DNA of 64,000 bases from Leptogorgia sarmentosa (taxonomy: Eukaryota), in contig OZ210885.1 of assembly GCA_964658305.1 (NCBI GenBank), positions 2,418,001-2,482,000 on the forward strand. Direction: 5' to 3'. Shown one piece after another: positions 20,297 to 49,810 of the stretch (position 1 is its first letter; each line of letters begins with the position of its first letter). The notes beneath the pieces were generated by a model. That model did no database searches, was not told where the DNA came from, and saw nothing but the letters and a program-made list of their open reading frames with translations. Both the position numbers and the translations under genes were made by a program.

Positions 20297-20593
20297 AAAG
20301 AGCATCTTTAATTCAGCAAAATTGCAAAAGTTTGGTTGCGAAATGTTGTAAAGTAAGGAAAATATGACCTTGTGAAGTTGGCAATTTTTGTATAATTATG
20401 TTTGTATTACGCGCGGAGAAACGTTACCACGTGCACGAAAATGTAATACATTTTTTTCGAACGAGGTATGACGTTTTTCCGCGCGTAATACTAAAATATA
20501 CAAAAATTGCCAACTTCACAAGGTCATATTTTCTTTACTTTACAATATTTTGCGACCAAACTTTGCCATTTTACTAAATTAAAGATGCTCTTT
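20297..20593. mobile_element. Foldback/MITE-like element
   Basis: ~120-bp imperfect inverted arms (aaagagcatcttta...ttggcaatttttgtata / tatacaaaaattgccaa...taaagatgctcttt); absent from unit B. Confidence 0.6.
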
Positions 20594-24748: not shown

Positions 24749-25250
24749 CTGGAAGTAATACAAAAGGCATTAAAATATCTGTCAGTAACAAACATTGTCT
24801 GAGACTGTATTTTGCCCAGGCATTACACCATCCATATATAGGTATCTACTATACATATTTATAAAAGAACAGGAAGTAAGTGAATAAATACAAGTCACAT
24901 GATTAGTACTGCATACACTAATTTTAGCCAAAATCGTAGAAGTTTTATGCTCAAATTTTGGTAAAGTTCATACATTCATTATCACTGTTCATAACTTCAT
25001 GTCAATACAGAGAAAAAAAATGAAAAAAAATGAGGCATTTCTTGCCTGATCTTGTGATCAATATTTTATCAATCTATTGCTGTGCACATGAACAAATATG
25101 TGAATTTCAGCTTAATGTATTGAGTCCACACAGCTATAAAGCTCCACCGCGAACTTCAACCGCTATTATTGTTACGTCTATTTGACATCTCATGCACCGT
25201 GAAGCATCAAGTCTTGATTTAGTAAAATGCTCTATATCACCTGCCGAGGC

Positions 25251-26082: not shown

Positions 26083-27632
26083 GCCGAGGCATTGCATTAT
26101 AAATGTCACATAAAATATACAGCCTATACGTGTCTTTAAACGGACAAAAGTTCTGTCTGTAGTCACGCTGAAAGCTGGTTGCATAGTTGTAATTTAGTCG
26201 CGCTACAACAGCCACGTTTAAAGGCGTGCAATCACGCGGAAAGCTTGCTTTATAAATAATACATTTTTGGCGGTCCTGCCTTCGCGAGAGAGCTGGACCT
26301 CGCGATCGTCGTTGTAAACAGCGGTCCTGAGCATGCGCAAGCGAAATTAGCCAATCAGAAACCAGAACTTTCAAAGTGAAAACAACAAAAAATCATAAAA
26401 ATGCTATTTGTTTCTAAATATTTTATTCATATAAATTCAGCTCCCAAAGGAACAGATGCAGTATGCATTTTCTGATGCTATGAAATGCCTCACGAATAAT
26501 ATAACAGCTATGAGGTGTCTTGTCAAATTTAAACCATTGGTCAACTGATCATTTTATGGAGTTTAATTCCGAGAAATGTGTACATCTTACTATTTCATGG
26601 GGGGCTGGCAAATGCGTAGTGTGGGCGACGGATTAATGTATAGAATTAGTTCGGTTATATTGAAAAGTTCGGTAATTATTATGTTCCTACTTACCGTTTA
26701 AATCGTAAAAATATTAAATATGTTTCCATGGGTTTTTGGAGATTTTGTACCTGTTTTTCAACGTCGTTTCCATCACCTGCATCGCACGTCGCTCGCTAAT
26801 TCATCAGCGCGTTTCCTCTATATGCCATAGCGCCTTGCAGGTTTCAGTGGCGCCGACAGGGGGGGGCGTGGGAGCTGGGAGAGCGATATTCAGGGGAATA
26901 TTTTTCCAAGTGTAATTTTGATAAGAAATAACACCAGAAGGAGATGAAATGTTCAAGAGATCCGCGAAGTGGAATTGTCTTCTATTTTAGCCCATAATCT
27001 TTCATTGAGTGTATGTGGAAAAATATCCGCAGACATCATTGGCATGGTCTGACTCCTCATTTGCCCCACCTCCAAAATAAAATCCTGGCGACCCTACTGC
27101 CCTACACTGATTTAACAACTCCTCAGGTAACAACCCCCTCTGTTTTCCTGTTAAATTTATCACATCTAATAAAATGTGACTACAACGAAATTTGAATAAT
27201 AATTAAATGAAGTTAAATTTTTTCAAGACAACGGTAAATGATTTTTCATAAAAACTCTTTGAATTCGATGGAGGTCCATTAGAAAATGTCTTGCAGTCCA
27301 AACAAATGAAAATCCAACTTAGACCAGTCACAACTTAAAGTGGAAACAAATTGCGTTGTCATCTTTGTTATTAATAAACGATTAAGGTCATTAACATGCA
27401 TACAATACAGTATGACTCCTCACAGAACAACCGAATTTTTAAACCTTTTTGAAACAATAGGTTATACTTTAACTACTTTTCTATATACACATTGCCACAT
27501 AACGCTTAGTGCCATTTAATTTTCAATTAATTAATTACGTTTGAGCACTTTGTTTGTCCTTACCAAACGCGAGCTAAAAATATTCATTATTGTATACAGG
27601 TGACTGTCCTTAATTGTTCAAGCCTGCAACGT

Positions 27633-28568
27633 TCAATGTCGCCCAATACTACTGCAAATGTTGAAAGCTTGCTTTCGTAATAATGGACTTTGCCAAAAGA
27701 AAATAAGTGAATTAAGACTAGAATTTAACGCGCATACTGTTGCAGCCCAAGATTGCGCAGCTCGGAATTCGGCCGGTTCTGCGTTAATAAAAATTACATT
27801 AAGAATTGGCGCTTGTAAAAAGCACAGATAGAATGTAACCACAACTAGAGCACATGATTTACCCAATTTTAACTCTCTTAAAAATTGTTTTTTCTTCGCG
27901 AACTCAGATGAGCTGTGTTTTACAGATGAATCGGTGAATGCTGTGTCCGAATTTCGCCCTGCAAGATAAATCTTTGTGTAGGCAAATGCATTAAATGCCA
28001 AAGGGATGCATAGATACGCCACACCAAGTATGTTGTATGCTTTTTTTGAAGCAACTGCCAACGGAACTATTACCATCAACAGTACACCTGTCGAACAAGT
28101 ATATATCAAGAATCTTTTCTTCGTCAAATATGTAAGATGAATAATTGGATGTAAGATGCCCATGTATCTCTCAAATGTTATTGCACATGTTGTAGTCAAC
28201 GTTAAGCCAAACGGAACCAGAGCTATCATTGAAAGAACAAAATTTGTAACGCATTTCGCGCTACCCAAGACTTCCCTTGCTCTGAGAAATGTTTCCAAAG
28301 GAAGCGAGATTGCTCCAACTGCCAAATCAACCACTGCTTGAATGAGAATGAGAAAATAACAAAGCCTTTCTTTTAGCTGGGAGCTCCTGGTGATAGTGAG
28401 CACTGAAATACCGTTTAAAAGTATTGTAGGGATCACTAACACGGAATTCGCCACACACACAGCAATTTGATTATTGAAATACTTTCTTGACGGAAATTCC
28501 AGTATTATAAAAGAGACACTGTCGAAAAAAGAGCAAGTCCGTATGTAATCATACGTCGTATTATTCAT
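27633..28568 (-). CDS. Intronless class-A orphan GPCR, copy B, ~311 aa
   Basis: Nearly identical to copy A; protein differences are at the N-terminus (IETFS vs IRTCS) and the upstream ATG is lost. Confidence 0.88.
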   Translation of the reverse strand: MNNTTYDYIRTCSFFDSVSFIILEFPSRKYFNNQIAVCVANSVLVIPTILLNGISVLTITRSSQLKERLCYFLILIQAVVDLAVGAISLPLETFLRAREVLGSAKCVTNFVLSMIALVPFGLTLTTTCAITFERYMGILHPIIHLTYLTKKRFLIYTCSTGVLLMVIVPLAVASKKAYNILGVAYLCIPLAFNAFAYTKIYLAGRNSDTAFTDSSVKHSSSEFAKKKQFLRELKLGKSCALVVVTFYLCFLQAPILNVIFINAEPAEFRAAQSWAATVCALNSSLNSLIFFWQSPLLRKQAFNICSSIGRH

Positions 28569-31500
28569 TTTCCAATGCAAAATAACAACTCTGCTCTTGC
28601 CGCTTTTACTAACAAAGAAATACAGCTATATGAAATAGGTTGACAGATGGAATATTAAAATTGTAGGCAAAGTTAAATATTTCATATAGCTAAAGTAAAT
28701 TATTTACGCAAATTGCTATATGATACTCATTACCGTTTTTCATTGTATAGCAATAAGGATGCAATTGATACTCCCACATATGTGATATTTTGAAAAACTT
28801 TATTTGCATAAATGTGTGTAGTTCGATCTAAAGTAATATGGAATAGGTTCGGATCAATTGACTTTATCGCCACCCATGCGCATGGGGTGGCGTATATTCA
28901 AATGTGAAAATTTTACGATAAAGTCAATTGATCCATACTTAGGTTCTTATATTACATAAGTAATAAGTTCTCGCACAGAATATCGTCTATGAATGTCTTC
29001 AATAATTGCAACCAGATAGTCCGGCAGTGATAATAGTCTGTACTAGGTCCAAAATGGGGCGATCTCGCGTTCCCCGTCTCGACCATTTTCGCTGCATGTT
29101 GAACTTTTAAAAGCGAATATTATCATTGATGTTCAATTATATTTTCCCTGAAGGATTTTCAATCGCGACCAAAAAGCAAATTTTGGACAGCTGTCTTTAT
29201 CCCAATAATGATCGCATTGTTTCCTAAGCTAATATTTAATGACATTTAATTATTTCGAAACGTTGCTTCATAATTAGCCTACTGCCAAAGTGCATATTCT
29301 ATAATGTGTGAGGTAATTTGATACATATGCATATTCAAGTGAATTATTAATTTCTAATCAATGATGCAGTTGACTACTTATACGGGATGTCCAAAAACGA
29401 GTCTTTATAAATTTCGGCACGCTGCTGCGTGCTCGTTTCTGTAGGAAATAAAACGAAATTCGCAAAACATGAGTGAAATTTTCGAGAACAAGTGTAATTA
29501 GCCATTTCTGAATAAAGCAAAGCAAAGGACTGGGTCTAGTCTCTCGGTTTGTAGGGACAAAAATGAGCAATATGCCGAAAATGACATCTAGGAAGTTCTC
29601 CTAAAATTTTTCTAACTTCCTAGGGCCGTTTGTTCAAAAGCGGCCTAGTTTAACGCTGGGTTAACATAAAATTCAAAGAAAATTATCCAACAATTTGTTT
29701 ATGAATTTAGAAATGTTTCGTCAGAAATCTTGTGGAGATCAATGAGAGTTTTCTTTGAAGTTTCCAAGTAAACAGATTTGCAGAAATACACAAACTAAAA
29801 CACTGCTTTAAATTTTAACCCAGGATTAGCCTTTCCTAAAGTTTCTAACTTTGTGAAGTTCTTTGTGCATCCTGAAATGCAGAAATTATAATTAAGGCAT
29901 GTTTTAATATTTATTTAGCTCGTTCACTTTAATTTGTTTCCCCTCCAAGCGTCAACTAGACCCAGTCCTTTGCTCGATTGGGAAATGGCTAATTTCCTAC
30001 AATATAATTGTAGTGCCACAGAATACTAATCAGTAGTTTTTTTTCGTAGGCGCTCTATTCGTCATCATTCGTCACTCAACAATAGTGCGCTAAAGCCCGT
30101 TTTCCACTCCGCCGCCGCCGGCGAAAAAAATTGATAGCGAAACCATTTGTTTACATTCATTTGCCTCTGAGGAATTTTTTTCCAATTTTCTAGTTGTTAA
30201 AAATGTTCAACTTTTGTCTTCCCTATGACTGTGTAAAAGACACTCTCCCCTGTATTTTGAAAATTCAAATTTCAATTTTTTTTCGATTATCCTACATTAT
30301 AAGCACCCAAACAATCTATATCAACCAAAACTTCCGTACCCTGTGTCGCTTGGCGAAGTTGAAATTTGTTCACTTTTTTATACATCCTGCATAAAACAAT
30401 AAATGGTCTGATTTAAATGGACTTTTCAATACTCCACAGTCTTCTCTCTGCTCTGAGACAACGAATTTGACGTCATTTCCGCTATAAAAGTGTTGGGAGA
30501 ATCCCTTGAATTTACAAACTGAAAATATTTCTCAACCAACATGCACATGAACTTAAAATGGATCTCTCTGATTCTCTGGGCGAAAGCTGAAGAATTCAAA
30601 AACTCGAACGAAATGGAACAGTCACTCAAGCAGGGCCGACGAATCATACTGCGCCTTTTTAATTTTGGCGGGAATTTACCATGAATAATTGCATTAATAA
30701 ATTTCGATAACATGCCTTACCTTTATAATTTGAACAAGTAAGCTTAAAAATTGCTATGTATCTAACCAGAACTCCATCTAATCTAAACACATCAATAAAC
30801 GTTATTTTTTTGAAAGCTTTTTTTGCAGATGCATATTTTGTGCAGCACATTACGTGTGGAAGTTGTATTTTTCCAGTGGAAGCTACAAGACCTTTATCAA
30901 TTATGTTTTATGAATATTTAGTGATCATTGTAGGATATGAGGAATGATAAATAATTCAGCATATCCTGCGAGAACCGAATTTAATTATTGTTTTCGTTTT
31001 TAATGTTTATCGGTATAAACGCATGCATTTTAAACAAGATTAACCATTCTTTGACGAATCAAAACTCAAAACTGCTGAATTAGTTGAAATTAAAAATAAT
31101 TATTGAATGAGCTAGGTTGAGCAAGATATGAAGAATTATCGGAGCATCATTTTTTCATTAACGATAAACTCGAACAAATCGAAATAACGGAAAGTTCTAT
31201 ATTTAGTTTAGCCAATAATCTGCTGAATAATGTTTAAAACTTGTATAAACTTGTATAAACATGTTCACACAAAGACAAATATGATCTCTTGCAGTTTTGA
31301 TTTAAATCCCAACCACCTGCTGTTTTCAATCAAATCCTATCATTTGTTACGGCAAGTACGACACGGAGAGAAAATCATGTATGTTGTATAGAAGTGAGTG
31401 ATCTCTAATCTTACGAACAGTCAATCCAGCCGACTGAATTGAAGTCGAAGTAAAATCATTTATGAGAGAAACGTCGCTAGATATCCAACATAACAGCGTG

Positions 31501-33081
31501 GTATTTTTCGTGGGAATTAAGACTTTCAATATTTCATCTAAAACAGGTTTGTTTTAGCAAAATAGAAATTTTCTACTTTGTTTCAGGTCGTTTTTAAATA
31601 ATACTGCTAAACATTTAGTTCGTTTGTAGCGAAACCTGCATGAATACATGCAATTTATTATGTGTAGACATATTGTGAGCCGTCATATGAATGTCACGCA
31701 GCTCTTGCGGGGGCGCAGCACCAAAACAGTTGGTAATTTAATTACAGAATAGTCTTTCACATGTTTCTTAAAAAGTTGCATGTTCAACTGTCTATTTGTG
31801 CGTGCTCGAGAATTAAAAAACATTCCAGTGTTTTCTCGATAAATGAGACATGCCTTTATGTGAAGAAAAATTTTAACTACGTATAATTAAGATAAACCAA
31901 AGCACTTATTACACAATGCATTTGTAGTAAACAGCGGCAGATGGTCTGGTCGTCAGATAACTGAAGTTCAATGAATGGCAAATTATTCATTCTAGAACTA
32001 ATTTTCCGCAATTTATTATTGTTGCTATACAATATTGTATTATTATTATTTTGTTGTCGTACTAAGTTTCGTAATAATATTGCATCGTCATTTCGTTTTC
32101 GAGGATTCGTCAGTTTTATATTTCTAAATATTAGTATGCAACAATGATCATATCATTCCTCTCGGATGAAACAGGCTGTAGTGGCAACTTTTGAGACAAA
32201 ACTATACTATTTGTTTCATGTATGTGGTATCGAGTACTCTTGGAATTTCGTTAGCCAAAGCAGCATAATTTAAATGATATGGTACAGAAACGCAAATCGA
32301 AATAGCGGGAAGTTTTTCAATTCCATATTTAGTTTAGCCAATATTATCTGCTGAACAATGTTTAAAACTTGTATAAACTTGTTCATACAAAGACAAATAA
32401 TATTTTGATCTCATGCTGTTTTTTTATTTAAATCCCAACCACCTGCTGTTGTCAATCAAATCCTTTCATTCGCTACGGCAAGTAGGACACAGAGAGAAAA
32501 TATTGGTTGAAAACCGAATATAACGTATTTTGTGGAGTAGTGTAACACAGGTATCTCCTTTATGCAAAGTTGAGAAATACTATAATGTATCATTCATAAT
32601 TATTCACTAAGCTTTATTTATTCGAGACATGTTTAAATTTCGTATAAATTGAACAAGCCCAGACTTGTCTTTGTATGTCGTATAGAAATGAGTGATCTCT
32701 AATCTTACGAATAGTCAATCCGGCTGACTGAATTGAATTCGAAGTAAAATCATTTATTATTGCAACGTCGCTAGATATCCAACATAGCAGCGTGGCATTT
32801 TTTGTGAGATAAAAATAATATTGGTTGAAAACCGAATATAACGTATTTTGTGGAGTAGTGTAATACAGGTATCTGCTTTATGCAAAGTTGAGAAATACAA
32901 TAATGTATCATTCATAATTATTCACTAAGCGTTATTTATTCAAGACATATTTAAATTTCGTATAAATTGGACAGTAGTATAAGAAAGGCCGATCGAGCCG
33001 GATTTTTGAGGTGGCGCGAGGTGGCGCGAGGTGGCGCGAGGGGGCGCATGCGTATTGAGGCTTTGAACTCATTAGAATATC

Positions 33082-33741
33082 GTGCTGTGATTGGTTGAAC
33101 AGCGTGACGTTACGCTATAGTGTGCTGTGATTGGTTGAACAGCGTGACGTTACGCTATAGCCGCGCTGTGATTGGTTGAACAGCGTGACGTTACGCTATA
33201 GCCGCGCTGTGATTGGTTGAACAGCGTGACGTTATGCTATAGCCGCGCTGTGATTGGTTGAACAGCGTGACGTTACGCTATAGCCGCGCTGTGATTGGTT
33301 GAACAGCGTGACGTTATGCTATAGCCGCGCTGTGATTGGTTGAATAGCGTGACGTTACGCTATAGCCGCGCTGTGATTGGTTGAACAGCGTGACGTTACG
33401 CTATAGCCACGCTGTGATTGGTTGAATAGCGTGACGTTATGCTATAGCCGCGCTGTGATTGGTTGAACAGCGTGACGTTACGCTATAGCCACGCTCTGAT
33501 TGGTTGAACAGCGTGACGTTACGCTATAGCCACGCTCTGATTGGTTGAACAGCGTGACGTTACGCTATAGCCACGCTCTGATTGGCTGAACAGCGTGACG
33601 TTACGCTATAGCCGTGCTCTGATTGGTTGAACAGCGTGACGTTACGCTATAGCCGCGCTCTGGTTGGTTGAACAGCGTGACGTTACGCTATAGCCGCGCT
33701 CTGATTGGTTGAACAGCGTGACGTTATGCTATAGTCACGCT
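33082..33741 (+). repeat. 16 x 41-bp tandem array in the left TIR/subterminal region
   Basis: Unit gccgcgctgtgattggttgaacagcgtgacgttacgctata; about 3 degenerate inverted copies at 40968-41080. Confidence 0.95.
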
Positions 33742-33852
33742 TTGAATGATTGTTGGCATAAAACTATACCGTCGTCATTTAATATCATTGTTTTAGTCTT
33801 TACCCTACAAGAGGCAACACAGCTATCCCTTTGGAGAAATTTATTTTGAGAT

Positions 33853-36800
33853 ATGGCTAAACAACATCAAAAAAGTATCTTGTAAGTTATAATGCACTCT
33901 ATTTGCTTTTAATTGTAACAGTGTTAAGAGTACGGTTTTTTACTTTAGGAGAGATCAATTTATGGAAGATCTTGAGAATTAGGAGAAGAATCGACAACTG
34001 TGCGCGTTGGCAGCTGACGACATGTTTGAGTCTTCGTCGCCTGAAACCCAAGAGCAAGTTCCTGCCGAATGGTGTGACTCGAAAGAACCTGAGAAATTCG
34101 GTTGTGTGTTTGATCAATGTGGTGAAGTGTTCACACGTTCGAACGATCTGAGACGACATATCCGAAGAGCTCACACGGCTGAACGACCACACGCATGTAG
34201 TACGTGTGGTAAGGATTTCAAGACAACAGATGATTTAAGACGCCACAAAAAAAACCATGAAGAAAAAACCTTCGAGTGTCATAAATGCTACAAGAAATTT
34301 GCTCGAAAGGTATTTTTCGTTTACTCTTTGAATTAGGATTATTGATAATGTATAGACTATATTGTATATTTTTTGTTACTAGGATAACCTCGACAGGCAT
34401 TTGAAAATGCACGAGAAAAGGGGAGCCGAACGCGAATATACGTGTAATATCTGTGATAAGGTGTTTCGAGATATATTCCCGCTACAAGCTCATCAACGAA
34501 ATGTGCATAAGATTGTTGCTGGAAAACGGAAAAAGACTGATACTACAACAACCCGAGTAAACCAAGGTAAGTAAAAAGAGTCAATTATATCGTTGAAACC
34601 GATCTTCGAGACTTCGAATTTGAAACTTTTTTTCTCTGTAGGGACATCGAGCGGTGGGCAAGTTAGTGGTCGTAAACGCAAGGCAACTGATGGTACGTCA
34701 GCCCAGACAAAACGAGCTAGAGTAAACGAAGGTTGGTGTAAAAGATTGTGTGTTGACATGATAGTAAAACATATTATTGAAATATTTGCTTCCCTATAGG
34801 AAGTTTAAAGTTTAGGCAAATTTACCGTGTGTTTGAAAAACAATTATAACTTGTTTCCCAGGGACATCGCCTACCATTCCACCGAATCAGTTTCCTCAAG
34901 ATCCAATCTACCCACCACCTGATCTTCCTTCGATACTTCATCGAGAAAACTGGCGCACCATCCGGACTAGACAAAGTCGTGGCAATCGAGTTCAGGACTG
35001 GTATAATTATCGCTTGGGCTCCTTGAATATGGGTGAACTTGTGCAAGATATTGAACGTATATTCCTAGACCAAACGACCGTTTTCAAACTGAACCTTTCC
35101 TTCGGTTTTGTACTATTTAATAATGACACGGAACAGATGCAGTACCACCATTCGTCAGCCAATAACAACCGGGTATTCGAGGCACCGTTTTTGGTTCGCA
35201 GTCGTGAAAATTTGCAACAAATTCGGTCAGCGTTAGAAAATCTGGACGTGTTTTAATGGGCTCGCCAACAACGTCCCAACTCCAAGTGGGTGGTTGCGGA
35301 TATCCTTAACGCGACATTCTACGTGACAAAACTCCGCGATCACCCTATTGGACGTAGTACTCGTTTACCCAAATACGTGCTGGAGAATCCCGCTGTTGTT
35401 TCACTAGATTGTGATAGAAATACTGGATTACCGTACGAGGACAAACTGTGTTTTTTCCGTTGTTTGGCTCTACACCGTGGATGTCACTCAAAAAATTTAG
35501 AACGCGACACACAACATTATTTTGAACGGTACGTTGAAGATGTCGATGATTTTGATGGTGTGACACTTGAAGAACTTCCCGACTTGGAAAAGTTATTTGA
35601 ACTAAACATTTACGTGTATCGACTCGTGGAATGTGAGGACGAAGATACTGAGAAAACCAAGATCGTTGCACAACTTATTCAGAGATCTCACCGTACTTTT
35701 GCCAACAGCATATATCTCAACCTCTATGAAAAGCACTTTAGCTATATCAAGAATATAAATATGTACTCAAAGTCTTACTGTTGCTCTAAGTGTGAGAAGC
35801 TATGGAAAACAGCAAAAGCTTTAAATCAACACGAGAAAACCTGCGAAGCGACTGTCCGACACGTGTTCCCTGGTGGTGTCTATAAAGTCCCACAAACGAT
35901 ATTCGATTTGCTCGAAGACGAAGGTGTTGTGATCCCCGAAGAGTTGAAGTACTTTCCGTATCGGGCAACATTCGACTTTGAGTGCTATTTTCAGAAAGAA
36001 GACGACCACCCTAGAAACACAGCAAAGCTTACATGGGAAGCCGAACATGTCCCGTTGAGTGTCTCTGTTTGCTCCAACGTCCCTGGCTATGATGAACCAA
36101 AGTGTTTTGTGTCCTCTGGCAATACAAAAGAAATGATCAAACAATTTATTGACTATTTGGTACAAATCAGCCAGGAGAGTTATGCATTGCTGTTGCACCA
36201 CTTTTCCGATGTGTTTGAGCAAATCAACCGACGAATGGAAAACAATGGGGTAAGTTGAGCATTTGAATGATTAAATATTATATACTTGAATCTTGAATCT
36301 TGTTGAGACTTGTACTTATGACTATATTATGTTTAGGTGTGTACTGAAAGTAGTAGCGGTGATATAGAAGAGATGTTTGCAGACGAGGCAAATGAGGTAT
36401 ATATGATTTTCAACGGTTTAAAAATGTTCAAGTTCCACATACCATTTAATCCATTCTTATCTTTTAGGATGAAAATGAAAAGACCCACCCTCTCGAGAAA
36501 CTTCGGGACAAGTTGGAACACTATCTCATGGAACTGCCCGTCCTCGGATTCAACTCTGGCAAGTACGACATCAATGCTGCGAAAAACCCCTTCTTTGCTC
36601 ACCTAGTGAAACATGAGGAAGTCCAGTTTGTGATAAAGCGAAACAACAATCACATGTGTCTGAAGACCTCACACTTGAAGTTTCTCGACATTACAAACTA
36701 CTTGGCTCCTGGATTTTCCTACGAACAGTTCCTCAAAGCCTACGAGTGCACGCAGACCAAAGGATATTTTCCATACGAATGGGTCGACTCCCTTGATAAG

Positions 36801-39083
36801 TTAAATTTCCCCACCTTACCACCTCACGATGCGTTTCATTCAGCACTTTCCAACACCGACATCACCAACGAACATTACAGCTATTGTCAAAGCGTGTGGA
36901 ACGATCATGGTATGGAAACTTTTCGAGACTTTTTGGTGTGGTATAATAATCTTGATGTTGTTCCCTTTCTCGAAGCTATTGAAAAAATGAGCCAGTTTTG
37001 GAAAGAACGAAATATCGATATTTTTAAGGATGGTGTAAGCGTGCCAGGTTTGACGATGAAATATTTATTTTCCAATGTTCCCGATATATACTTCTCACTA
37101 TTTACTGAAAAAGACAAAGACTTGTACTATACCATGAAAGATAATAACGTTGGTGGTCCCAGTATTATATTTAACAGATACCACGAAAAAGACAAGACAA
37201 ATATACGCAACGTAGAAATGACAAGAAAGAACTTAAAACCCAAACCCTGCAAGAAAGTGGTCGGTTACGATGCGAATGCTTTATATCTTTGGGCGATCAT
37301 GCAAGATATGCCAACGGGGCAGTATACTCGTCGACTGGAAAGTGACAACTTTAAGAAGAAATGGAGTGGTAAAATGGCTGTAGAGTGGTTGGAGTGGCAA
37401 GCTTACCAACGTGGTGTTAAAATTAGACACCAAAATAACAACACAGAGAAGAGAATTGGAGCTCGTCGCCTTCCAGTGGACGGATTCTGTTCCCAAACAC
37501 AAACGGTGTTTCAATTTTACGGTACATTACTGCGTGGGACACATCGATTAAAGATACCACGTTTGTCGCAAATTGCTAATTTTCCCTTTTCTCGTATTAG
37601 GTTGTTATTGGCATGGCCATGATTGCCACTTAAACCAGGGCAAAGACACCAACACGACGCGGGACAAACCCATGAAAGACTTGCTCGAAGAGACACGGAG
37701 AAACAGTTCTTACATCCGTAAGCAAGGTTTCAATCTTGTCGAGTGTTGGGAATGTGAATGGCGTGAGAGAAAAAAGACGAACAGAGAATTACAACGATTT
37801 ATCGCTACTCGACTACGACGACCCTTAGACAAAGTGAAGACAATGACTCTACAGTCCATTCTCGATGCTGTGAGAGATGAAAAGTTATTTGGGTGCGTAG
37901 AGTGTAATATCCACGTTCCAGAACATTTACGTGAACAATTTTCTGAAATGTGTCCTATATTCAAAAACACCGAGATATCTCGAGACGATATAGGCGACTT
38001 TATGAAAGCCTACGCCGAAGATAACGACATCATGCGTCGACCTCGCAGAAGTCTCATTGGAAGTATGGTCGGTGAAAAAATTTTGTTGGCCACACCTCTC
38101 TTAAAGTGGTATTTGGAACATGGTTTAGAGGTACGTATTACGTATAGGTTAATAAGCATAGGTTTCATTACTAATGTCATTTTTGTTTTTTATAGGTAAC
38201 ACACGTCTATCAGGTGATAGAATATACACCTAAACCATGTTTCAAACCCTTTGGTGACGCTGTATCGAATGCCCGTCGTGCTGGAGATGCTGACCCGGCC
38301 AAAGCAATAATCGCAGATACGATGAAACTCGTTGGGAATTCGTCGTATGGGAAAACTATTACGAACAAAGAGCGCCATCGTCAAGTGAAATTTTGCGACG
38401 ACAACAAAGTGTCAAGCTTAATCAACTCGCCATTTTTCCGTGAATTGAACGCTATCGACGACAACACGTACGAAGTGGAAAGCAGCAAGAAAAAAATTAA
38501 ACTGGACCTGCCTCTTCAAGTTGGATTCTTTGTTTATCAATACGCCAAATTACGTATGTTACAATTTTATTATGATTTTTTAGATAAATATTTAGACAGG
38601 TCGGATTTCGAATATTGCGAAATGGATACCGACAGTGCGTATATTGCCATTAGCGTGGAACGTATAGAAGATTTGATAAAACCTGAAAATATGTGTGAGT
38701 TTGAGAACGATAAATGTAACTGGTTTCCTCGAACGGACACGGTAGAGCATGCAAAATATGACAAGAGAACGCCTGGTTTATTTAAAGTTGAGTGGGAAGG
38801 GGATGGATGTATCAGTCTTTGTAGTAAAACGTATTATTGCTTTGGGGATGGGAAAGATAAATTTAGTTGTAAAGGTGTAAATAAGACAAATAATGTAATT
38901 AACAAGGATAAATATTTAGATGTCATTTTGAGTAAACGTAGTGGGTCTGGTGTAAATAGGGGATTCAGGGTTTTAAATAATAAGATGTGCACATATGTTC
39001 AAGTTAAAAACGCTTTTAGTTATTTTTATCCAAAACGTAAAGTTTTGGAGGACGGTGTAACAACTATTCCTTTAGATATTTAA
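33853..39083 (+). pseudogene. pPolB: C2H2-zinc-finger-fused protein-primed family B DNA polymerase, 9 exons, ~1527 codons, two in-frame stops (33980, 35254)
   Basis: Exons 33853-33881, 33949-34309, 34383-34566, 34642-34731, 34862-36249, 36337-36396, 36468-37521, 37601-38130, 38196-39083. Exo motifs FDFE, GFNSGKYD, YNNLDV; pol motifs YDANALY, KLVGNSSYGK, MDTDS, KGV. Exon 1 is the least certain. Confidence 0.9.
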
Positions 39084-39353
39084 GATTTTGTAAATAGTAG
39101 TTTGTAAATATATCTTCCTATACCTAATATGTGTGTATGACTATCCAAATAACAATCTGTGTTGAGAAAAACTTATATATGCATATATCTAAATTAATTG
39201 GAGACCCTACGGTGGGTATGGGGTAGTTTTGCTTTACGGGACTCGCGGGACTTAATTTGTCCCTCCATGGGACTTTTTTCCTATTTAGTTTTCATGTTGT
39301 AGTTTGTTAAGTTTAGTTTACATCATGCCACGTTTGCGTAAAGACTGCCCGCT

Positions 39354-39782
39354 ATGTGGGAAACAGGGTTTGATGAAACAATGATTCAGCCAGTTGGAGT
39401 AAGCGTCGTACCCCCTAAACCAACTGACGACAAGCTTGTAACACAACCAGAAGACAGCGTAAATTTACCTAACAATGTTGAAGCTGATATTATGGAAAGT
39501 GTTCCTCCTACGATGAAATCTCGAGCCCGACAACTGGTTAAAAAATTGAAAGAAAATAAAGATTTGATTACATGGGACGACAAAGGCCAGATAATCTACG
39601 AGGGAAAACCTGTGGTGGGGAGTAACGTGATAGATCTTGAGAATGATGCCCTACGTCACAGAAAACAATCAGAGATTTTAAAACTGGGGCAATGCATGAA
39701 CTGGAAGAGGAACCCCAATAGTCGACCATACAAATGGTTTAGAAATAAAAAACATAGAACTAAAAGATCGTTTGTGTGTTGA
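39354..39782 (+). pseudogene. Fragment of a conserved Polinton protein of unknown function
   Basis: SVPPTMKSRARQLVKKL...ITWDDKGQIIYEGKPVVGSNVIDL resembles, from memory, a recurrent Polinton ORF; it appears truncated. Confidence 0.5.
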
Positions 39783-39788
39783 ATACAT

Positions 39789-40259
39789 TTATTGCACAAA
39801 AAACCATTTACATATAAAATCCCTTACAAGCGCATCGTTTCATTCCTTGTCGTTCGTAAACATATTAGTAATAGTTGACATGGGTATATTTCTACATCTA
39901 TGTAGTGCATAAAACCGAGACAATACTGTCCACACACATTAGACCATGCTGACTGTAAAGTTAACTTATTATAAATAAAAGTACTGCTATTATCTTCTAA
40001 AAATGTTTTAAAGTTCTCGCTGTAGTAGCTAGGTTTTTGTCCGTAAGAATCCATAAATTCCCCTTTTCGCATCAGCTGTCAGGTAAATAGCTACCCAGTG
40101 CGAGCCAGAACCATCACTAGTATCGACATTCACAACAAATCCCCTGGGCTTTTTTTCTGATATAGTATCCGGTAGACGATCCGAAGACACCACACTCGTA
40201 AACACTGACTTGGTAAACGAATCACTTTGAAGCACGTTTAGAATCTGTAGAGTGTTCAT
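39789..40259 (-). pseudogene. Adenain-like cysteine maturation protease (two frameshifts, one stop)
   Basis: VVNVDTSDGSGSHWVAIY / EFMDSYG / LQSAWSNVCGQYC give the His-Asp-Gln-Cys set across two frames; a third frame gives FYALHRCR...NDALVRDF. Confidence 0.88.
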
Positions 40260-40260
40260 T

Positions 40261-40550
40261 CTAACTGTTAAAATCGCACAGCACGTTGCGGTTAGCGTCG
40301 ATTTCAATAAGGTTTTGAAACTCTCCGAGCACCACGATATTTATAGCCCAGTTAAGAGCGGTACCAAACTGAACTTCCAGTGAGACGTTGCCGTTTTTAA
40401 TAGGTTGTAGATGATCTCTTGAACAAAGATCGGCTGTCAGATCAAACACGAACAATGTGTAACCTACTGTAGCTTTAGGGTACTCGTCGCGCGAGATGCC
40501 ATTACCTTCGTTCTGAAACAGCTTATTCGCACCAGCATACAATGTTTGAA
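40261..40550 (-). pseudogene. C-terminal remnant of the double jelly-roll major capsid protein
   Basis: GNGISRDEY..GYTLFVFDLTAD...GNVSLEVQF..ALNWAINIVVLGEFQNLIEIDANRNV is typical of a Polinton MCP C-terminus. Its stop lies 1 nt before the protease ATG. Confidence 0.82.
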
Positions 40551-43500
40551 AAACTAGATTCATATTAATCTAGTTTTTCATATCTCTGAGGATGGTTCTG
40601 AAATACAATGTTTGAACAATCGTATCTTTAACCATTCGCATCTTTCCCAAGCGCCCATGTCCGTAACACCTTCGATGTAGGCAACCACTTTCACGATAAG
40701 CTGTCGCAGCTTTTCCAAACATATAGCAATCTTGATCGGGGCAAAAGAATTCACAACTCTGCCATTGTATTCAACTCATTCCATTGTATTACGACAAACT
40801 TGTAGGTTCTCCAAGGCTTTTTTCAAACGGTCCAATCCTTCTCTAGCGTCGTCCTGAAAAATTATCGGTTTTTGACTAAAGCAAAAACACCAAACCAAGT
40901 GTAACCCAAACATTGATGTCGGAATCACTTGACAGTGTAGTTATATAGCCTTATGGCAAAAACCATGAACCAATTAGAGCGCGGCTATACTTAACGTCAC
41001 GCTGTTGGACCAATCAGAGCGCGGCTATAGCGTAACGTCACGCTGTGTTCGTCACGCTGTTCAACCAATCAGAGCACGATATTCTAATGAGTTCACGACC
41101 TCAATGCGTATGCGCCACCTCGCGCCACCTCGCGCCACCTCAAAAATCCGGCTCGATCGGCCTTTCTTATACTACTTTGGACATGCCATGCAGACTTGTC
41201 CCGTATGTCGTATAGAAGTGAGTGATCTCTAATCTTGCGAATAGTCAATCCGACTGACTGAATTCGAAGTAAAATCATTTATGAGAGAAACGTCGCTAGA
41301 TATCCAACATAACAGCGTGGCATTTTTCGTAGGGAAGACATTCAATACTTCATCCAAACCAGGTTGGTTTTAAATAATTTACTGCTTTGTTTCTGGTCGT
41401 TTTTAAATAATACTGCAAAACTTTCAGTTCATTTGTAGCGAAAGCTGCACGAAAACATGCAATTATGTGCAGACATTAAGAATCGTTTATACAATATTTT
41501 GGGGGAGCTGACTTCGATGTATGGATTCATAGATTGCGTTAAAATGCATGTAACAGGATATTTGGTGCAGTCTGGGCAATGTTGAATTCTGAGGTTTGTC
41601 GCTTTCACTTTCTCAGAAGTTCTTTCACTTTCGCCTCAAAATAACATGACGTCATTGTGAGCCGTCATATGAAGTGTCACGCAGCTCTTGCGGGGGCGCA
41701 GCACCAAAACAGTTGGTAGTGTAATTACAGAATAGTCCTTCACATGTTTCTTAAAAAAAATGCATGTTCAACTGTCTATTTGTGCGTGCTCGAGATTTAA
41801 AAACATTCCAGTGTTTTCTTGATAAATGAGACATGCCTTTATGTGAAGAAAAATTTTAACTACGTATAATTAAGATAAACCAAAGCACTTATTACACAAT
41901 ACATTTGTAGTAAACAGCGGCAGATTGTCTGGTCGTCAGATAACTGAAGTTCAATGAATGGCAAATTATTCATTCTAGAACTAATTTTCCGCAATTTATT
42001 AAATTAAATAATTGTTGCTATACAATATTGTATTATTATTATTTTGTTGTCATACTAAGTTTCGTAATAATATTGCATTGCCACTTCGTTTTTGAGGCTT
42101 CGTCACTTTTATATTTCTAAATATTATTATGCAACAATGATCATATCATTCTTCTCGCATGAAACAGGCTGTAGTGGCAACTTTTGAGACAAAACTGCAC
42201 TTTTTGTTTCATGTATGTGGTATCGAGCGCTCTTGGAATTTCGCTAGCAAAAGCAGCATAATTTAAATGATAAGGTATAGAAACGCAAATTGAAATAGGC
42301 TTTAGCGGGAAGTTTTTCGATTCCATATTTAGTTTAGCCAATATTATCTGCTGAACAATGTTTAAAACTTGTATAAACTTGTTCATACAAAGACAAATAT
42401 GATCTCCTGCTGTTTTGATTTAAATCCCAACCACCTGCTGTTGTCAATCAAATCCTATATTCCTATCATTTGTTACGGCAAGCACGACACGGAGAGAAAA
42501 TCTTGGTTGAAAACCGAATATAACGTATTTTGTGGAGATGTGTAATACAGGTATGTTGTTCATGCATCCATTCCTGATTATCCAAAACATTGTCTTGCCT
42601 GACTTTAGATTTTGTTCAGTTAAAGTTGAGAAATACTTTTATTAATGTATGATTCATAATATTCACAAGGAAATATTTATTCAAGACAGATTTAAATTTC
42701 GTATAAATTGAACATGCCATGCAGACTTGTTCTGTATATGTCGTATAGAAGTGAGTGATCTCTAATCTTGAGAATAGTGAATCCGGCTGACTGAATTGAA
42801 GTCGAAGTAAAATCATTTATGAGAGAAACGTCACTAGATATCCAACATAACAGCGTGGCATTTTTCGTGGGAATTAAGACTTTCAATCTTTCATTCAAAC
42901 AGGTTTGTTTTAAATAATTTACTGCTTAGTTTCAGGTCGTTTTTAAATTATACTGCTAAACTTTTACTTCGTTTGTAGCGAAAGCTGCACGAAAACATGC
43001 AAATATGTAAACATTAACAATGGTTTATACGATATTTTGGGGGAGCTGACTTCGATGTGTGGATTCATAGATTGCGTTAAAATGCATGTAAGAGGATATT
43101 TGGTGCAGCCTGGGAAATGTTAAATTCTGATGTTTGTCGCTTTAACTTTCTCAGAAGTTCTTTCACTTTCGCCTCAAAATAGCATGACGTCATTGTGAGT
43201 GGTCATATGAAGTGTCACGAAGCTCTTGCGGGGGCCAGAACAAAACAGTTGGAAATTTAATTACAGAATAGTCTTTCACATGTTTCTTAAAAAAGTTGCA
43301 TGTTCAACTGTCTATTTGTGCGTGCTCGAGATTTAAAACCATTCCAGTGTTTTCTCGATAAATGCGACATTCCTTTATGTTAAGAAAAATTTTAACTACG
43401 CATAATTAATTAATTAAGATGAACCAAAGTACTTATTACACAATGCATTTGTAGTAAACAGCGGCAGATGGTCTGGTTGTCAGATAACTGAAGTTCAGTG

Positions 43501-45896
43501 AATGGCAAATTATTCATTCTAGAACTAATTTTCCGCAATTTATTATTGTTGCTATATAATATTGTATTATTATTATTTTGTTGTCATACTAAGTTTCGTA
43601 ATAATATTGCATCGCCACTTCGTTTTTGAGGCTTCGTCACTTTTATATTTCTAAATATTATTATGCAACAATGATCATGTCATTCTTCTCGCATGAAACA
43701 GGCTGTAGTGGCAATTTTTGAGACAAAACTATACTATTTGTACGTGGTATCGAGCGCTCTTGGAATTTCGTTAGCCAAAGCAGCATAATTTAAATGATAA
43801 GGTATAGAAACGCAAATTGAAATAGCGGGAAGTTTTTCGATTCCATATTTAGTTTAGCCAATATTATCTGCTGAACAATGTTTAAAACTTGTATAAACTT
43901 GTTCATACAAAGACAAATATGATCTCCTGCTGTTTTAATTTAAATCCCAACCACCTGCTGTTGTCAATCAAATCCTATATTCCTATCATTTGTTACGGCA
44001 AGCACGACACGGGGATAAAGTATTGGTTGAAAACCGAATATAACGTATTTTGTGGAGTTGTGTGATACAGGTATGCTGTTCATGCATCCATTTTCTGATT
44101 ATCCAAAACACTGATTTTCTGACTTTAGATTTTGTTCAGTAAAAGTTGAGGAATATTCACCAGGAATTATTTATTCAAGACAGATTTAAATTTCGTATAA
44201 ATTGAACATGCCATGCAGACTTGTACTGTATGTCGTATAGAAGTGAATGATCTCTAATCTTGAGAATAGTCAATCCGGCTGACTGAATTGAATTCGAAGT
44301 AAAATCATTTATGAGAGAAACGTCACTAGATATCCAACATAGCAGCCTGGCATTTTTTCGTGGGAATTAAGACTTTCAATCTTTCATTAAAAACAGGTTT
44401 GTTTTAAATAATTTACTGCTTAGTTTCAGGTCGTTTTTAAATAATACTGCTAAACTTTTACTTCGTTTGTAGCGAAAGCTGCACGAAAACATGCAATTAT
44501 GTGTAGACATTAAGAATTGTTTATACGATATTTTGGGGGAGCTGACTTCGATGTGTGGATTCATAGATTGCGTTAAAATGCATGCAACAGGATATTTGGT
44601 GCAGCCTGGGAAATGTTAAATTCTGATGTTCGTCGCTTTAACTTTCTCAGAAGTTCTTTCACTTTCGCCTCAAAATAGCATGACGTCATTGTGAGTGGTC
44701 ATATGAAGTGTCACGAAGCTCTTGCGGGGGCCAGAACAAAACAGTTGGAAATTTAATTACAGAATAGTCTTTTACATGTTTCTTAAAAAAGTTGCATGTT
44801 CAACTGTCTATTTGTGCGTGCTCGAGATTTAGAAACATTCGAATGCTTAATTTTCTCGCTAAATGAAAGATCCTTCTATATTAAGAAAAAACTTAGCTAC
44901 GTTTAAGATAAACCAAAGCACTTATTACACAATGCTTATGTAGTAAACAGCGACAGGTGGTCTGGTCGTTAGGGTTAGGGTTTCTGACATCAATTCAAAA
45001 TAAAACAACTGATTTCAAAAGAAATCAGTTGGCAGATCGCCAAATTATGAATATGCACCCCCAACCCCCCCCCCCCCCCCCACCGCCGCCCAATTAACGT
45101 TCTATCGCCGGCCCTGTGTGAATGGCATAGTTAGAGACAACCTTTGTATTTGGAATTAAACTATGTAAATACAAAAAGAAGCCCACAGTAGTGTTTTCCC
45201 GCCTTATTTGTATTTTCCAGCATTTATCTCTTTTCACGAGTCCAGGTTCTCTTATAGTCAGTTGTGGTCTTGTTGCATTGGTTCTTGTCTTTTCACAAGC
45301 TTCTATCACTCTTCACATTTTTGAGATCAATGATGACTACTCAATGATAACCAACATTATATATATACATAGAACAAGATATACTGTCTAAATATCACAT
45401 TAGATCAAATGTCATTGCCTATATTACTATATATATAGCAAACTTTGTCACCTAAATTTCAATGACCTAATTTATACATTTTGCAATTTGAAAGTCATAA
45501 TTCGCATTCATTTTGAGGAAAATTTAAATCCTCGAAATTTCACACGGCGGAACGTTGACACACAAACTGGTTCTATAAAACTCTCAATTTCGTACGCGTT
45601 AACTACTTTCATAGTTAAATGTAGTTAGCTCTAGAAAACGCATTTCTTAATGGTTAACTTTCGCACGTTTTTATACAACCGGCCCCAGTTGTATACAAGG
45701 CCACCCAGCTTAACCTGGGGGAATTTAAAATTCAAAAATTTCCAGTTTGCCTATAAATGAGAAATATTCTCCAGAATTGCGAAATCTTGGTCGGGAGTGA
45801 AAAGAGCTTTCTTCTTTGGAGTTTCGAAGTATATGGGAATTTAGCTGTACATATATTTGTTGTTTTTTAGGTTACAGTGACGTATCATACCACACA

Positions 45897-48318
45897 ATGG
45901 CGGGAGAAACAGTAGGATTTAACGATCCAATTCATGGCTACATGGAATTTGATCCTTTATTGGTGGAAATCATAGATACTCCATACTTTCAAAGAATGAA
46001 GGACATCAAGCAACTGGGTGGTTCATATTGGATCTTCCCTGGTGCCTCACACAATCGCTTCGAACACTCCCTCGGCACTGCGCACCTGGCTGGGATGATG
46101 ATTGAAAGGTTGAGAGATGTTGGCGATGGTAAGAAATATGTAACGGATGAAGACGTCTTGTGCGTTAAGATTGCAGCACTCTGTCATGTAAGTAATATAA
46201 GTGTAACTTTGTCTATTGATATATTTTTTTAATATTTATATAATAAAGAAAAAGCATGCAAGGTTGTTTGGCTCAGGTATCTCGTCTACTTTAATATCTT
46301 TAATGTACTTCAAATGCCTATGTAAGGAAACTTTTTGTTGCAATAAATTAATTAAAGAACTTTTAAACACATTTAAGTTCTTTATATTTTTTTATTACAG
46401 GGCTTTGTTGATGAGATACTTCAGTTTGAATCTTTTCCTTTGCCCGTTAATGACGTCACACATTGCATGATGAGTCATAAGAAATTAAACTATAAATTGT
46501 TCCTGAAAATAGACGGTTTAGAAAATAAATCGTACGTTTTTGTTTGTCCTTAATCTCTATATTACGTCATTATTTCAAGAATTTGATTCATTGAGGACAC
46601 AGATAACTGGTATTTCACGACAACTCATTATGCAAAATGTGACGTAATTAGCGGGCATGGGAAAAGATTCAAACTGAAATATCGCAAAGCACTGTATAAA
46701 ACATTATAAAAGAACTTGTACTACAATTTATAAGTTCATTCATACATTGTAACAATAATTTTCGTTTCATACGCACTTTAATATCAGATACAAGACAGTG
46801 TAATAAGCCTTGCTTCCTACGAGTACGTTATGTCAATGTTTTTCCATTTCACAGGACTTGGGTCACGGCCCATTCTCTCATGTTTTTGATACGACCATGA
46901 AAAATAAATTGATTGAGTACCATGAATGTAAAAACACCGATGCTGAGAAGTCGTTAGAACATTTGATAAATTGGAAGCATGAAGATGCATCGTGTAAAAT
47001 GTTTGATTATATGATAAAGGAAAACGAAGAACTGAAAGAGGCTTTTGAGAAAAGGGATCTTGACGAAAGCAAGAGAAAGCTCATAAAAGAGATTATTAAA
47101 GGTACAAGCCCTGACGAGATTATTAAACGTGAAAGCCCTGACGACGAAGAATTGAAAAAAGAATTACTGACAAAAAAAGAGATCAAATGGTTTCTGTTTG
47201 AAATTGTGGCTAATAAAGTCAACGAAATCGATTGTGATAAGTTCGATTATTTTGCCAGAGACTGTCACAACCTTGGAATGAAGAGCAATTTCGATCATCT
47301 TCGCTACATTCACAATATCCGGATTAGGCCAAAACCCGGGACGAATGAGCTGCACTTATGCGTACGTGACAAACTTAAATTTAATCTGTACGAGCTCTTC
47401 CACACCCGATGGTCATTACATCACCGCGCTTACCAACATAAGACCACCAAAGCTATCGAGGAAATGATTACCGATGCTTTTGTTCTGCTAGAAGAAAAGT
47501 ACAAGTTCTCCGAGGCTATGTCCGATATGGGGAAGTATGCCATGCTGACCGATAGCATATTTTACGAAATCTTGCACATGAGGGATCGCAATGGCAAAAC
47601 CAATGAAAAAAGCGAAGAAGAGCGAAAAGCGCAAGAAATTCTCAAAAGAGTACAGGAGCGAAAATTATATAAGCTTTATGACGAGTTTCAACCCAGTCAA
47701 GATGATTTCAAGATAGATGATTTAAAAGCTGCTGCAGAAGAAATCGCAAAACTATGCGATCCGGAGGTTGATCCAAAACAATTACTTCTCACTATTGTAA
47801 AAATCGATTTTGGGCAGGAAGAGAAAGACCCTGTAGAATCTGTCATATTTTACGAGAAAAAAGAAACAAAAGAGGAAAATGTTAAGTATACGTACGAAGT
47901 TTGCCTCCATAAAATTGGTAAAGAAGACGTAAGCCGAATGCTCCCAGAACGGTTTATTGAGCGGTACGTTAGAATCTATGGAAAGAAAGAAGATATCGAA
48001 GGTGAAAAGAAAGAAGATATCGAAGGTGAAAAGAAAGAAGATATCGAATGTGAAAAGAAAGAAGATATCGAAGGTGGAAAGAAAGAAGATATCGAAGGTG
48101 GAAAGAAAGAAGATATCGAAGGTGGAAAGAAAGAAGATATCGAAGGTGGAAAGAAAGAAGATATCGAAGGTGGAAAGAAAGAAGATATCGAAGGTGGAAA
48201 GAAAGAAGATATCGAAGGTGAAAAGAAAGAAGATATCAAAGGTAAAAAGAATGAGAAAGAAATTGTTCAGGGCGGTTTTAGAAAGTGGGCGGAAAAATAT
48301 AAACAAATTTCAAATTGA
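45897..48318 (+). CDS. SAMHD1-like: SAMHD1-like HD-domain dNTPase B; exons 45897-46187 and 46855-48318, ~584 aa
   Basis: Same catalytic motifs and intron position as copy A, with a divergent C-terminal half. Confidence 0.92.
47983..48246 (+). repeat. Coding minisatellite, 11 x 24 bp, KKEDIEG(E/G)
   Basis: Unit aagaaagaagatatcgaaggtg(a/g)a, in frame within SAMHD1-like B. Confidence 0.95.
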
Positions 48319-49099
48319 CATGAAATCCTTGAATATCCTTTTCCTGAATAGTCATTTTTGTATATTTTACTCACAGTAATTAAACTTAGGGTAATCACAT
48401 GTAATAATTAAATACATATTTCAGGTTCATTAATTTCATTGAGAACTTTTTTGCTCGATTTGATCATGTTAATTGCAGTATAAGTATCAGTGAGAAAAGC
48501 CGATCGGACAATAATTGACTTTTATCACTAGGGGGAGGAGGCGGAGTCTTTTTGTTAAAAATATTTCACTGACATTGCCCCGAAAACTATTAATTTATTT
48601 AAACAACTAGCTAAATACAAATTCTACTGTTCTATAATATTAGCTTTAATCATCAACCAACGTAGCTTATCGCGCAATTAAAATGTGCACTTCAACAAAA
48701 GTATTTGTTCTTATTACCTTTTTGCTGCCAAATATTGCAATAATGCGATCAATCTCTCATCATTCATGAGAGTGTTTTTTTAAAGCTTTGTCACAATACA
48801 TACTGTAACTATTTTAAATAACCTACTGTTTATAATTTAACAATACAAGAATTTGCAACAATTGTGACAGGGTATTCACAACAGCAATAATATTTTAAAT
48901 TAATATTTATTTGTTTTTGTAGTCGCCCCTGCGTCATTAGGATTGGCAGTTATAGACGGCTGGCGACCGTCCGCGTTATCAAAGCTGCGCAGTGCTTTGA
49001 ATTTTTTTCGGAATCTTTCCTGTACCTGAGCGTACATTTTGCTTGTCTGTCAATCTCTGGGTTCAGTAAAATTTCGAGAAAAAAAATAAAGTTTAAGTT

Positions 49100-49810
49100 T
49101 CATGGTGCTATAACAAAAATTATTATATGGCTGACATAAATGCCGCACGCTGATTGGTTGATTAGCGGTCCGGAAAAAGTCATCTTGCCCGCTCAGGAAA
49201 GTCATCTTGCCCGCTCGTGAAACTATTGTACAAATAAAATTTTTAAGGAAACTAAATCTTATTATGCCGTACCGTGACGATGAAGAACACTCCCCGATTG
49301 AATTTTACTGTCCCAGAAAAACACACGACACAAAATGCTGAGTTTTAAAGTGAAAATAACGGCGAACAAAAGAACAGTTCGAAAACTGTTGCGAACATGA
49401 TTGTTTTCACAGCACTTAAATGGCTTCATTTCGCATCGAACATTTGTTGTTTATCACGACATTTACATTATATTTTTTTATTCAATTTTTTCCTTTGTTG
49501 TATTTTTATTGTTTTGTTGTTGTACAGCAGTGAACGGCCAGAAACCGCCATTCAGTATGCCAGTGTATACGGCTGAACGTTTTAGCAGCGAAAGTGTTTT
49601 CTAGTTCTTTCTACAATGTCAGAACAAATTGCGATCGAACAAAGCCATATAATAAATCCCTTATTAACCTCATTTGCTCTGTCTGTACGGGAAAGTATTG
49701 CCTTCGGTTTTTAACGCACAGACCTCGCTCCTTCGTCGCTCGGTCTGTACGAAAACCCTCAGGCAATACTTTCCCGTACAGACCTCGCACTCGGTTAATA
49801 AGTCCTTAGT
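49100..49810. mobile_element. ~700-bp non-autonomous insertion ending in a long imperfect hairpin (~49662-49803); absent from unit A
   Basis: The flanks align to ~19190-19250. Hairpin arms ttattaacc...gtctgtacgggaaagtattgcc / ggcaatactttcccgtacagac...ggttaataa. Confidence 0.65.

Follow-up and report, generated by a model that had tools for sequence, protein, structure and literature searches.

The window analysed here is a 64,000-nucleotide stretch of Leptogorgia sarmentosa DNA (contig OZ210885.1, positions 2,418,001 to 2,482,000). It carries a Polinton/Maverick element of 8204 bp (32973–41176) whose gene for a protein-primed DNA polymerase of family B (pPolB), at 33853–39083, is divided by eight short GT-AG segments. 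It is very probable that in this Polinton family the eight segments are introns that are genuinely spliced, likely by the major spliceosome of the host. Six sequencing runs hold the gene, none of them recorded as RNA, and four have been aligned to it (X1, X2, X3 and X5). X1–X3 belong to one study, with 45–49 million letters of contigs, and X5 belongs to a second study, with 220 million letters. The parts of the gene are as follows.

33853–33881, + strand: exon 1, coding part as proposed; joint 33881–33949 in X1 and X3
33882–33948, + strand: intron 1, 67 nt, phase 2; sequence and contig joints
33949–34309, + strand: exon 2, C2H2 zinc fingers; the window copy has an in-frame stop at 33980 and a later in-frame ATG at 34022
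34310–34382, + strand: intron 2, 73 nt, phase 0, cuts a zinc finger; sequence, joints and homologs
34383–34566, + strand: exon 3, C2H2 finger and basic linker
34567–34641, + strand: intron 3, 75 nt, phase 1; sequence and joints
34642–34731, + strand: exon 4, short, basic linker
34732–34861, + strand: intron 4, 130 nt, phase 1; sequence and joints
34862–36249, + strand: exon 5, Exo I FDFE at 35971 and the N-terminal part of pPolB; the window copy has an in-frame stop at 35254
36250–36336, + strand: intron 5, 87 nt, phase 0; sequence and joints
36337–36396, + strand: exon 6, 60-nt acidic linker; sequence and loose contig ends
36397–36467, + strand: intron 6, 71 nt, phase 0; sequence and a loose end, the weakest junction support of the eight
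36468–37521, + strand: exon 7, Exo II, Exo III, Pol A (YDANALY at 37266) and the start of the VSR domain; PF03175 above cut-off
37522–37600, + strand: intron 7, 79 nt, phase 1, within the VSR nuclease motif; common to relatives
37601–38130, + strand: exon 8, remainder of the VSR domain
38131–38195, + strand: intron 8, 65 nt, phase 0; absent in every relative examined
38196–39083, + strand: exon 9, Pol B (38325), Pol C DTDS (38625) and the stop codon

At these coordinates, which are those of the original prediction, all eight introns start with GT, end with AG and are 65–130 nt long, with 29% GC compared to 42% in the exons. In each of them 8–11 of the last 12 bases before the acceptor are pyrimidines, so that all eight have the ends of U2-type introns, and a CTRAY branch-like motif is found at -25 in two. 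GT..AG ends occur in 0.35% of random same-length segments of the gene, a figure that is no test because the segments had been chosen beforehand; the test is provided by the contig joints and the homolog jumps. Joining the exons restores the split motifs CHKCYKKFARK^DNLDRHLKMH, FQFYG^CYWHGH and HGLE^VTHVYQVIEY as they had been quoted (^ marks the joint). A single 4584-nt frame had also been claimed. Its length and continuity hold, since the exon lengths total 4584 and the proposed frame is the one with the fewest stops in each of exons 2–9, but it is not open in the window copy, where in-frame stops lie at 33980 (exon 2) and 35254 (exon 5) and the longest stop-free stretch of the gene is 384 aa. 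Position 35254 has a different letter in contigs of all four aligned runs (at about half depth in X1 and full depth in X2, X3 and X5), so the family as a whole does not share this stop. Similar basic motifs close exons 3 and 4, introns 3 and 4 are both of phase 1, and exons 4 and 5 share their first 8 letters (34383–34869). Duplication of an exon 3/4 module was not significant by shuffling (upstream ends p = 0.185, introns p = 0.21) and is kept as a lead only.

Exact exon joints are present in the contigs of X1–X3 at seven of the eight introns. They are found in all three runs for introns 2, 3, 4, 7 and 8, and in two of the three (X1 and X3) for introns 1 and 5. Contigs of ~2.4 kb in these runs continue through exons 7, 8 and 9 and are ~99% identical to the window. 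Because of these exact joints, X1–X3 are probably RNA, and the precise removal expected of a U2-type intron is thus seen for seven introns in runs inferred to be RNA. Intron 6 is represented in X3 by a loose end of 11 letters matching exon 6 at its end; the interior of the intron is covered by an X1 contig (depth 12.6), and X5 contigs also lie within it. X5 contains the intron-bearing form, with a gap-free contig leading from 38101 through intron 8 to 38530. The joined forms were not seen among the X5 contigs, which is no proof that this run lacks them. The spliced sequence derives from near-identical sister copies of the window element. In X1, a divergent sister also joins exon 5 to a variant of exon 6 (loose end at 36251). 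The contigs of X1–X3 stop 20–60 nt past the stop codon and give no cover on the 41-bp array upstream of the gene or on most of 39363–40486, which has not been used as evidence. A sister copy with a 183-nt deletion at 35376–35560 is found in all four aligned runs. The GT..GT ends of this skip and its occurrence in X5 mark it as a deletion in the DNA, as opposed to a splice.

Homologs agree with the joints. Among 120 proteins examined, 114 of the 116 that match both sides of intron 7 are contiguous over it, as are 105 of 106 for intron 8; the alignments skip these two introns and do not run through them. Two database proteins (P0001 and P0002) are contiguous over intron 2. Introns 1 and 3–6 lie in variable linkers where homology is uninformative.

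The history of the introns has been followed in the best 80 of 189 metagenome loci (L numbers) and in database proteins (P numbers). In the junction scan only candidates with slack 0, a high score and a GT donor were counted, and most 'inside' candidates were dropped as low-scoring, GC-rich protein insertions. Site 7 is covered by 47 of the 80 loci and interrupted in three. L006 and L010 carry intron 7 at the identical site and phase (113 and 125 nt long, compared to 79 nt in the window), so that the intron is not specific to one copy, and L055 is interrupted one base off. Among the proteins, P0002 ends and P0127 begins at site 7 on contigs of equal length, which implies an intron, and P0132 begins there with a pyrimidine-rich read-through resembling intron 7 of the window. 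In a tree of 40 of 115 rows (one 351-residue exon-7 region, midpoint root), a clade with support 100/99 unites the window with L006, P0002 and two Paramuricea proteins; L055 is in a separate clade (99/99) and L010 is weakly placed (84/89). Exon 9 differs between the window and L006 at 126 of 885 bases (22, 9 and 95 at the three codon positions) and at 26 of 295 residues. The predominance of third-position differences indicates that the polymerase has been under purifying selection in the lineage with intron 7.

None of the 69 loci that cover site 8 is interrupted there, and neither are P0121, P0124, P0125 and P0132, relatives that are 86–92% identical (P0121 92%). Since the site is uninterrupted in all relatives examined, at up to 92% identity, intron 8 is most simply explained as gained recently, which its distribution makes likely. 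A further site, after the DTMKL motif, is uninterrupted in the window and interrupted in 4 of 67 loci, namely three near-identical loci with a phase 0 intron (L002–L004; L003 9930–10015) and L055, four bases off. At this site 20 of 66 database proteins with the motif run off into V-S or V-R (P0003–P0049), and C-terminal ORFs (open reading frames) beginning VGNS after it are filed as separate proteins. ORF-called relatives are thus cut at intron sites. L003, judged from its sequence only, has short introns also ahead of and behind the zinc fingers. Separate intron sets are found in L055 (2863–2936, 3890–3968 and 4637–4716) and L010 (1064–1208 and 1465–1602); those of L055 are offset by 1 nt and 4 nt from the sites that other clades use. 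The introns are not copies of their own flanks: of 16 tests for a flank-duplication origin, one (intron 7, downstream) reached p = 0.012, which loses its significance once all 16 are allowed for. These distributions point to recent and near-parallel intron gain in Polinton polymerase genes.

The encoded protein combines C2H2 zinc fingers, pPolB and a VSR nuclease domain. The fingers are encoded in exons 2–3, and exon 7 matches PF03175 with 27.5 bits against a cut-off of 25.8. Exo I–III and Pol A–C, searched by pattern, are all present despite the two stops in the window copy, as in a protein-primed family B polymerase. Exon 5 presumably also holds OTU-like Cys/His residues, matched by pattern only. 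The VSR domain (profile positions 849–919) matches E. coli Vsr with E = 2e-4 and is cut by intron 7; in the relative L018 the Pfam Vsr match has E = 5e-4, below the cut-off. By its sequence, the VSR domain is inserted in pPolB as in the pPolB2-VSR subgroup. The polymerases of distant loci (L039–L045, L049–L050, L052, L059, L063–L075 and L077–L080) are without ~140–150 residues at the VSR position. The nearest named polymerase is that of Paramuricea clavata (80%). The Polinton polymerases P0001, P0023, P0031, P0044 and P0052 are filed at NCBI as host zinc-finger proteins (ZSCAN22, MSN4, Krueppel-related).

The gene lies in an element with terminal inverted repeats, AGTAGT...ACTACT ends and a perfect 6-bp target-site duplication, TTGGAC, on both sides (32967–32972 and 41177–41182). 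Maverick ends have been given as 5'-(AGT)2//(ACT)2-3' or (AG)3//(CT)3, with a 6-bp target duplication, in the available text of PMC8097293 (Barreat and Katzourakis 2021), and the window element has both features. Its other parts are as follows.

32967–32972, no strand: left target-site duplication TTGGAC; sequence, and element-skipping joints in X3 and X5
32973–33218, + strand: left terminal inverted repeat, starts AGTAGT; 100% complementarity with the right end over the outer 65 nt
33083–33745, + strand: array of ~16 units of 41 bp; predicted promoter/origin region, a putative function
39369–39665, + strand: Polinton gene remnant; matches an L018 ORF, unnamed, that lies between the ATPase and the integrase
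39744–40265, - strand: frameshifted remnant; matches the L018 ORF of 204 codons that follows the capsid-like gene
40261–40569, - strand: putative remnant of the C-terminal part of a double-jelly-roll major capsid protein; cluster comparison and L018/L009 ORF matches
40968–41176, - strand: right terminal inverted repeat, terminates ACTACT; sequence

The 41-bp array adjoins the polymerase gene on its upstream side, with TGACGT in every unit and ATTGG in 15 of ~16; only ~3 of the units are found at the right end of the element. We take ATTGG and TGACGT to be CCAAT-box and CRE-like (cAMP response element) motifs, which give the array the look of a transcription-factor site array. On the 3' side of the polymerase, the window copy holds three remnants only, all of which match L018 ORFs. 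The remnant at 39744–40265 is presumably protease-like by its motifs, and a PDB search with it gave no match. The 102-aa putative capsid remnant scores 0.98 to double-jelly-roll clusters (PF21738 on 45% of one cluster), with a recognition value of 1950, below 2300; a Pfam search with it gave no match, and the resemblance is kept as a lead. A retroviral-type integrase and a packaging ATPase were not found in the 8.2-kb window copy. In L018, a homologous but intronless 1670-codon zinc-finger/pPolB/Vsr frame has an A32 ATPase (Pox_A32) and an rve-chromo integrase alongside. Since both genes stand beside the homologous pPolB there, the window copy is a deletion derivative and is not autonomous. 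Loose contig ends near 40570–40620, where other copies continue differently, mark an internal deletion junction in the window copy.

A ~1.5-kb host repeat with at least six copies (31278–32966, 41177–45000 and 11800–14600) has the element in one of its units, and the other units are empty. Contigs of X3 and X5 carry joints that skip the element, as expected of an empty site. Among 67 relatives of a flanking host gene, the named organisms are Paramuricea and Dendronephthya only, which together with the Paramuricea match of the polymerase makes an octocoral host likely. The terminal 20-mer of the element matched 0 of 80 fetched loci, and a viral-contig search for relatives gave 0 loci. Segmental duplications of 85–97% identity (4144–8810 with 26094–30812; 14611–25117 with 45075–54528) include a single-exon G-protein-coupled receptor gene (PF00001) and an HD-associated-domain gene, which has a 24-bp repeat expansion at 47931–48302 in one copy only.

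Based on these observations, the following mechanism is proposed. Host RNA polymerase II would transcribe the gene from the left end of the element, where the 41-bp array is the predicted candidate, and the major spliceosome of the host would remove the introns. Intact and mobile copies, which are presumably still present in the host genome, would then make a polyprotein of ~1500 residues for protein-primed replication. During the residence of the lineage in animal nuclei, the introns may have been gained singly at (A/C/G)G^G sites. Intron 7 would predate the separation from L006 and P0002/P0127, intron 8 would be a recent gain, and the introns would be tolerated passengers and not a switch. 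The original prediction had the replicase depend on the host spliceosome. This is supported for the sister copies, from which seven of the eight introns are joined out, and does not extend to the window copy, which is broken and deleted. None of the three tests set out in the original prediction for refuting the introns did so.

The introns could alternatively be a control device, in which regulated retention or skipping sets the polymerase output, or yields short zinc-finger products, according to the state of the host cell. Retention of intron 6, the interior of which is covered in X1, would shift the frame, but a contig with a retained intron may equally be pre-mRNA or DNA. The same site, or one within 1–4 nt, is reused across clades (site 7 in the window clade, L010 and L055; the DTMKL site in L002–L004 and L055), which an AG^G-like context also accounts for. 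Short introns seem to flank the zinc fingers of L003, but intron positions vary by lineage and many relatives are without core introns. With no alternative GT-AG joint among the joints listed (15 of 21), we regard a control device as unlikely. An origin of the introns from an introner family, that is, an intron-generating transposon, is quite improbable. Introners do occur in dinoflagellate eupolintoviruses, according to the available text of PMC12166617, and the two junctions of intron 8, which looks recent, share a 5-nt repeat. However, 272 comparisons showed no family resemblance among the eight introns and nine of the relatives, except for the orthologous L002/L003 pair, and neither terminal inverted repeats nor a further copy was found in the window and the fetched loci.

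Splicing itself would be dispensed with if the segments had been inserted into dead copies and the joined contigs stemmed from intronless DNA copies of a sister lineage or retrocopy. In favour of this, the kinds of the runs are unrecorded, X3 also has flank and empty-site joints, P0121 is intronless at site 8, and the window copy is decayed. It is nevertheless very improbable, as all seven joints fall at GT..AG and have pyrimidine tracts, no intronless relative is as near to the window as the joined contigs, and the sequence of intron 7 has diverged while its site and phase are kept in lineages under purifying selection. It is extremely improbable that the gene is a domesticated host gene of Polinton origin that gained introns as host genes do. 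Spliced and presumably expressed forms exist and NCBI models of relatives bear host zinc-finger names, but the gene lies between intact termini with a perfect duplication inside a single host-repeat unit, several divergent copies are present in the runs, and the window copy has stops.

Genuine splicing by the host remains the preferred explanation, and several points weigh against it. X1–X3 are of unrecorded kind, come from a single study and were used as contigs instead of raw reads, and no joint at intron 6 is among the joints listed. No intact full-length element of the family was seen in the runs and loci examined, and the window copy cannot make the protein. Most relatives are without core introns, a stop-free stretch of at least 900 aa being present in 47 of the 80 loci (including the three near-identical loci with one late intron). 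The one-region tree and the weak placement of L010 confine any reading of gain versus loss at site 7 to the core clade.

A spliced Polinton replicase contradicts the stated intronless property of the family, and does so with junction-level support. Because Polinton core genes have been described and filtered as intronless, functional intron-bearing lineages would be scored as fragments or fossils, or misnamed as host zinc-finger genes. One survey counted Genewise 'introns' as decay, another required 900-aa ORFs, and several database relatives are already misnamed. Splicing binds the element to the nucleus and restricts it to hosts whose spliceosome is compatible, and this would affect its horizontal spread. 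Close relatives that differ in intron 8, together with the shifted introns of other clades, offer a multi-copy element in which intron gain can be tested directly. A broader proposal, which we hold tentatively as a real but not favoured possibility, is that marine-invertebrate Polintons with zinc-finger/VSR pPolB actively and repeatedly gain replicase introns in parallel at a few hot spots (identical or 1–4 nt apart between clades), and so recently that copies of 86–92% identity differ in intron 8, forming a hidden splicing-dependent branch and a natural intron-birth system, possibly with splicing as a replication switch.

Splicing in a nuclear element is mechanistically ordinary. Adenovirus is a nuclear protein-primed DNA virus related to Polintons, and expression of its polymerase from E2B (pol/pTP) depends on host splicing. 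There, a short spliced leader exon is joined onto a long ORF, whereas the introns of the window gene cut the zinc finger, VSR and polymerase regions.

The window element has the terminal inverted repeats, AGT/ACT ends, 6-bp duplication, pPolB and putative capsid remnant of animal Polintons/Mavericks as described in the available text of PMC8097293 and of Widen et al. (bioRxiv 10.1101/2022.07.12.499685), but it is only 8.2 kb long and is without integrase and ATPase. In the same texts, no introns were seen in intact vertebrate elements (PMC8097293, agreeing with Kapitonov and Jurka 2006) and Polinton core genes are called intronless (Widen et al.), and the original prediction had noted that pPolB is usually described as one long ORF; the window gene departs from this with its eight introns. 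No report of spliced Polinton core genes was found among the results listed for the literature searched, outside of which fell Repbase, subscription papers and supplements. Spliceosomal introns within the core genes of Polintons are not mentioned in the available portions of PMC8502044, PMC12220804, PMC11161782 (in which a TP-vOTU-Exo-palm layout is given), PMC11244446 and bioRxiv 2026.10.13.758929, 2026.06.19.733378 and 2026.07.28.741278.

Among the Polintons of marine nematodes and molluscs, VSR-bearing pPolB2 has been reported (Jeong et al. 2023, PMC10748475, as far as available), and the window gene likewise has the VSR endonuclease domain within pPolB. The main text of that paper mentions neither spliceosomal introns nor zinc fingers, and its filter sets lower limits of 650 aa for matches and 900 aa for ORFs. 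With its longest stretch of 384 aa the window gene fails this filter and, as had been expected, would be missed by ORF-based searches. The polintoviruses of stony corals (Stephens et al. 2024, PMC11131425) are likewise integrated in coral genomes and their PolB is expressed. The words intron, splic and exon have 0 occurrences in the main text of that paper, yet relatives grouping with Porites and Exaiptasia proteins have the post-DTMKL intron. Dinoflagellate eupolintoviruses, in the available text of PMC12166617, resemble the window in having spliceosomal-type introns inside polinton-like elements. Those introns are introner-family copies, acquired after integration and mostly in noncoding regions, whereas the introns of the window are mutually unrelated, lie in a core gene, are inherited in the case of intron 7, and are joined out in contigs.

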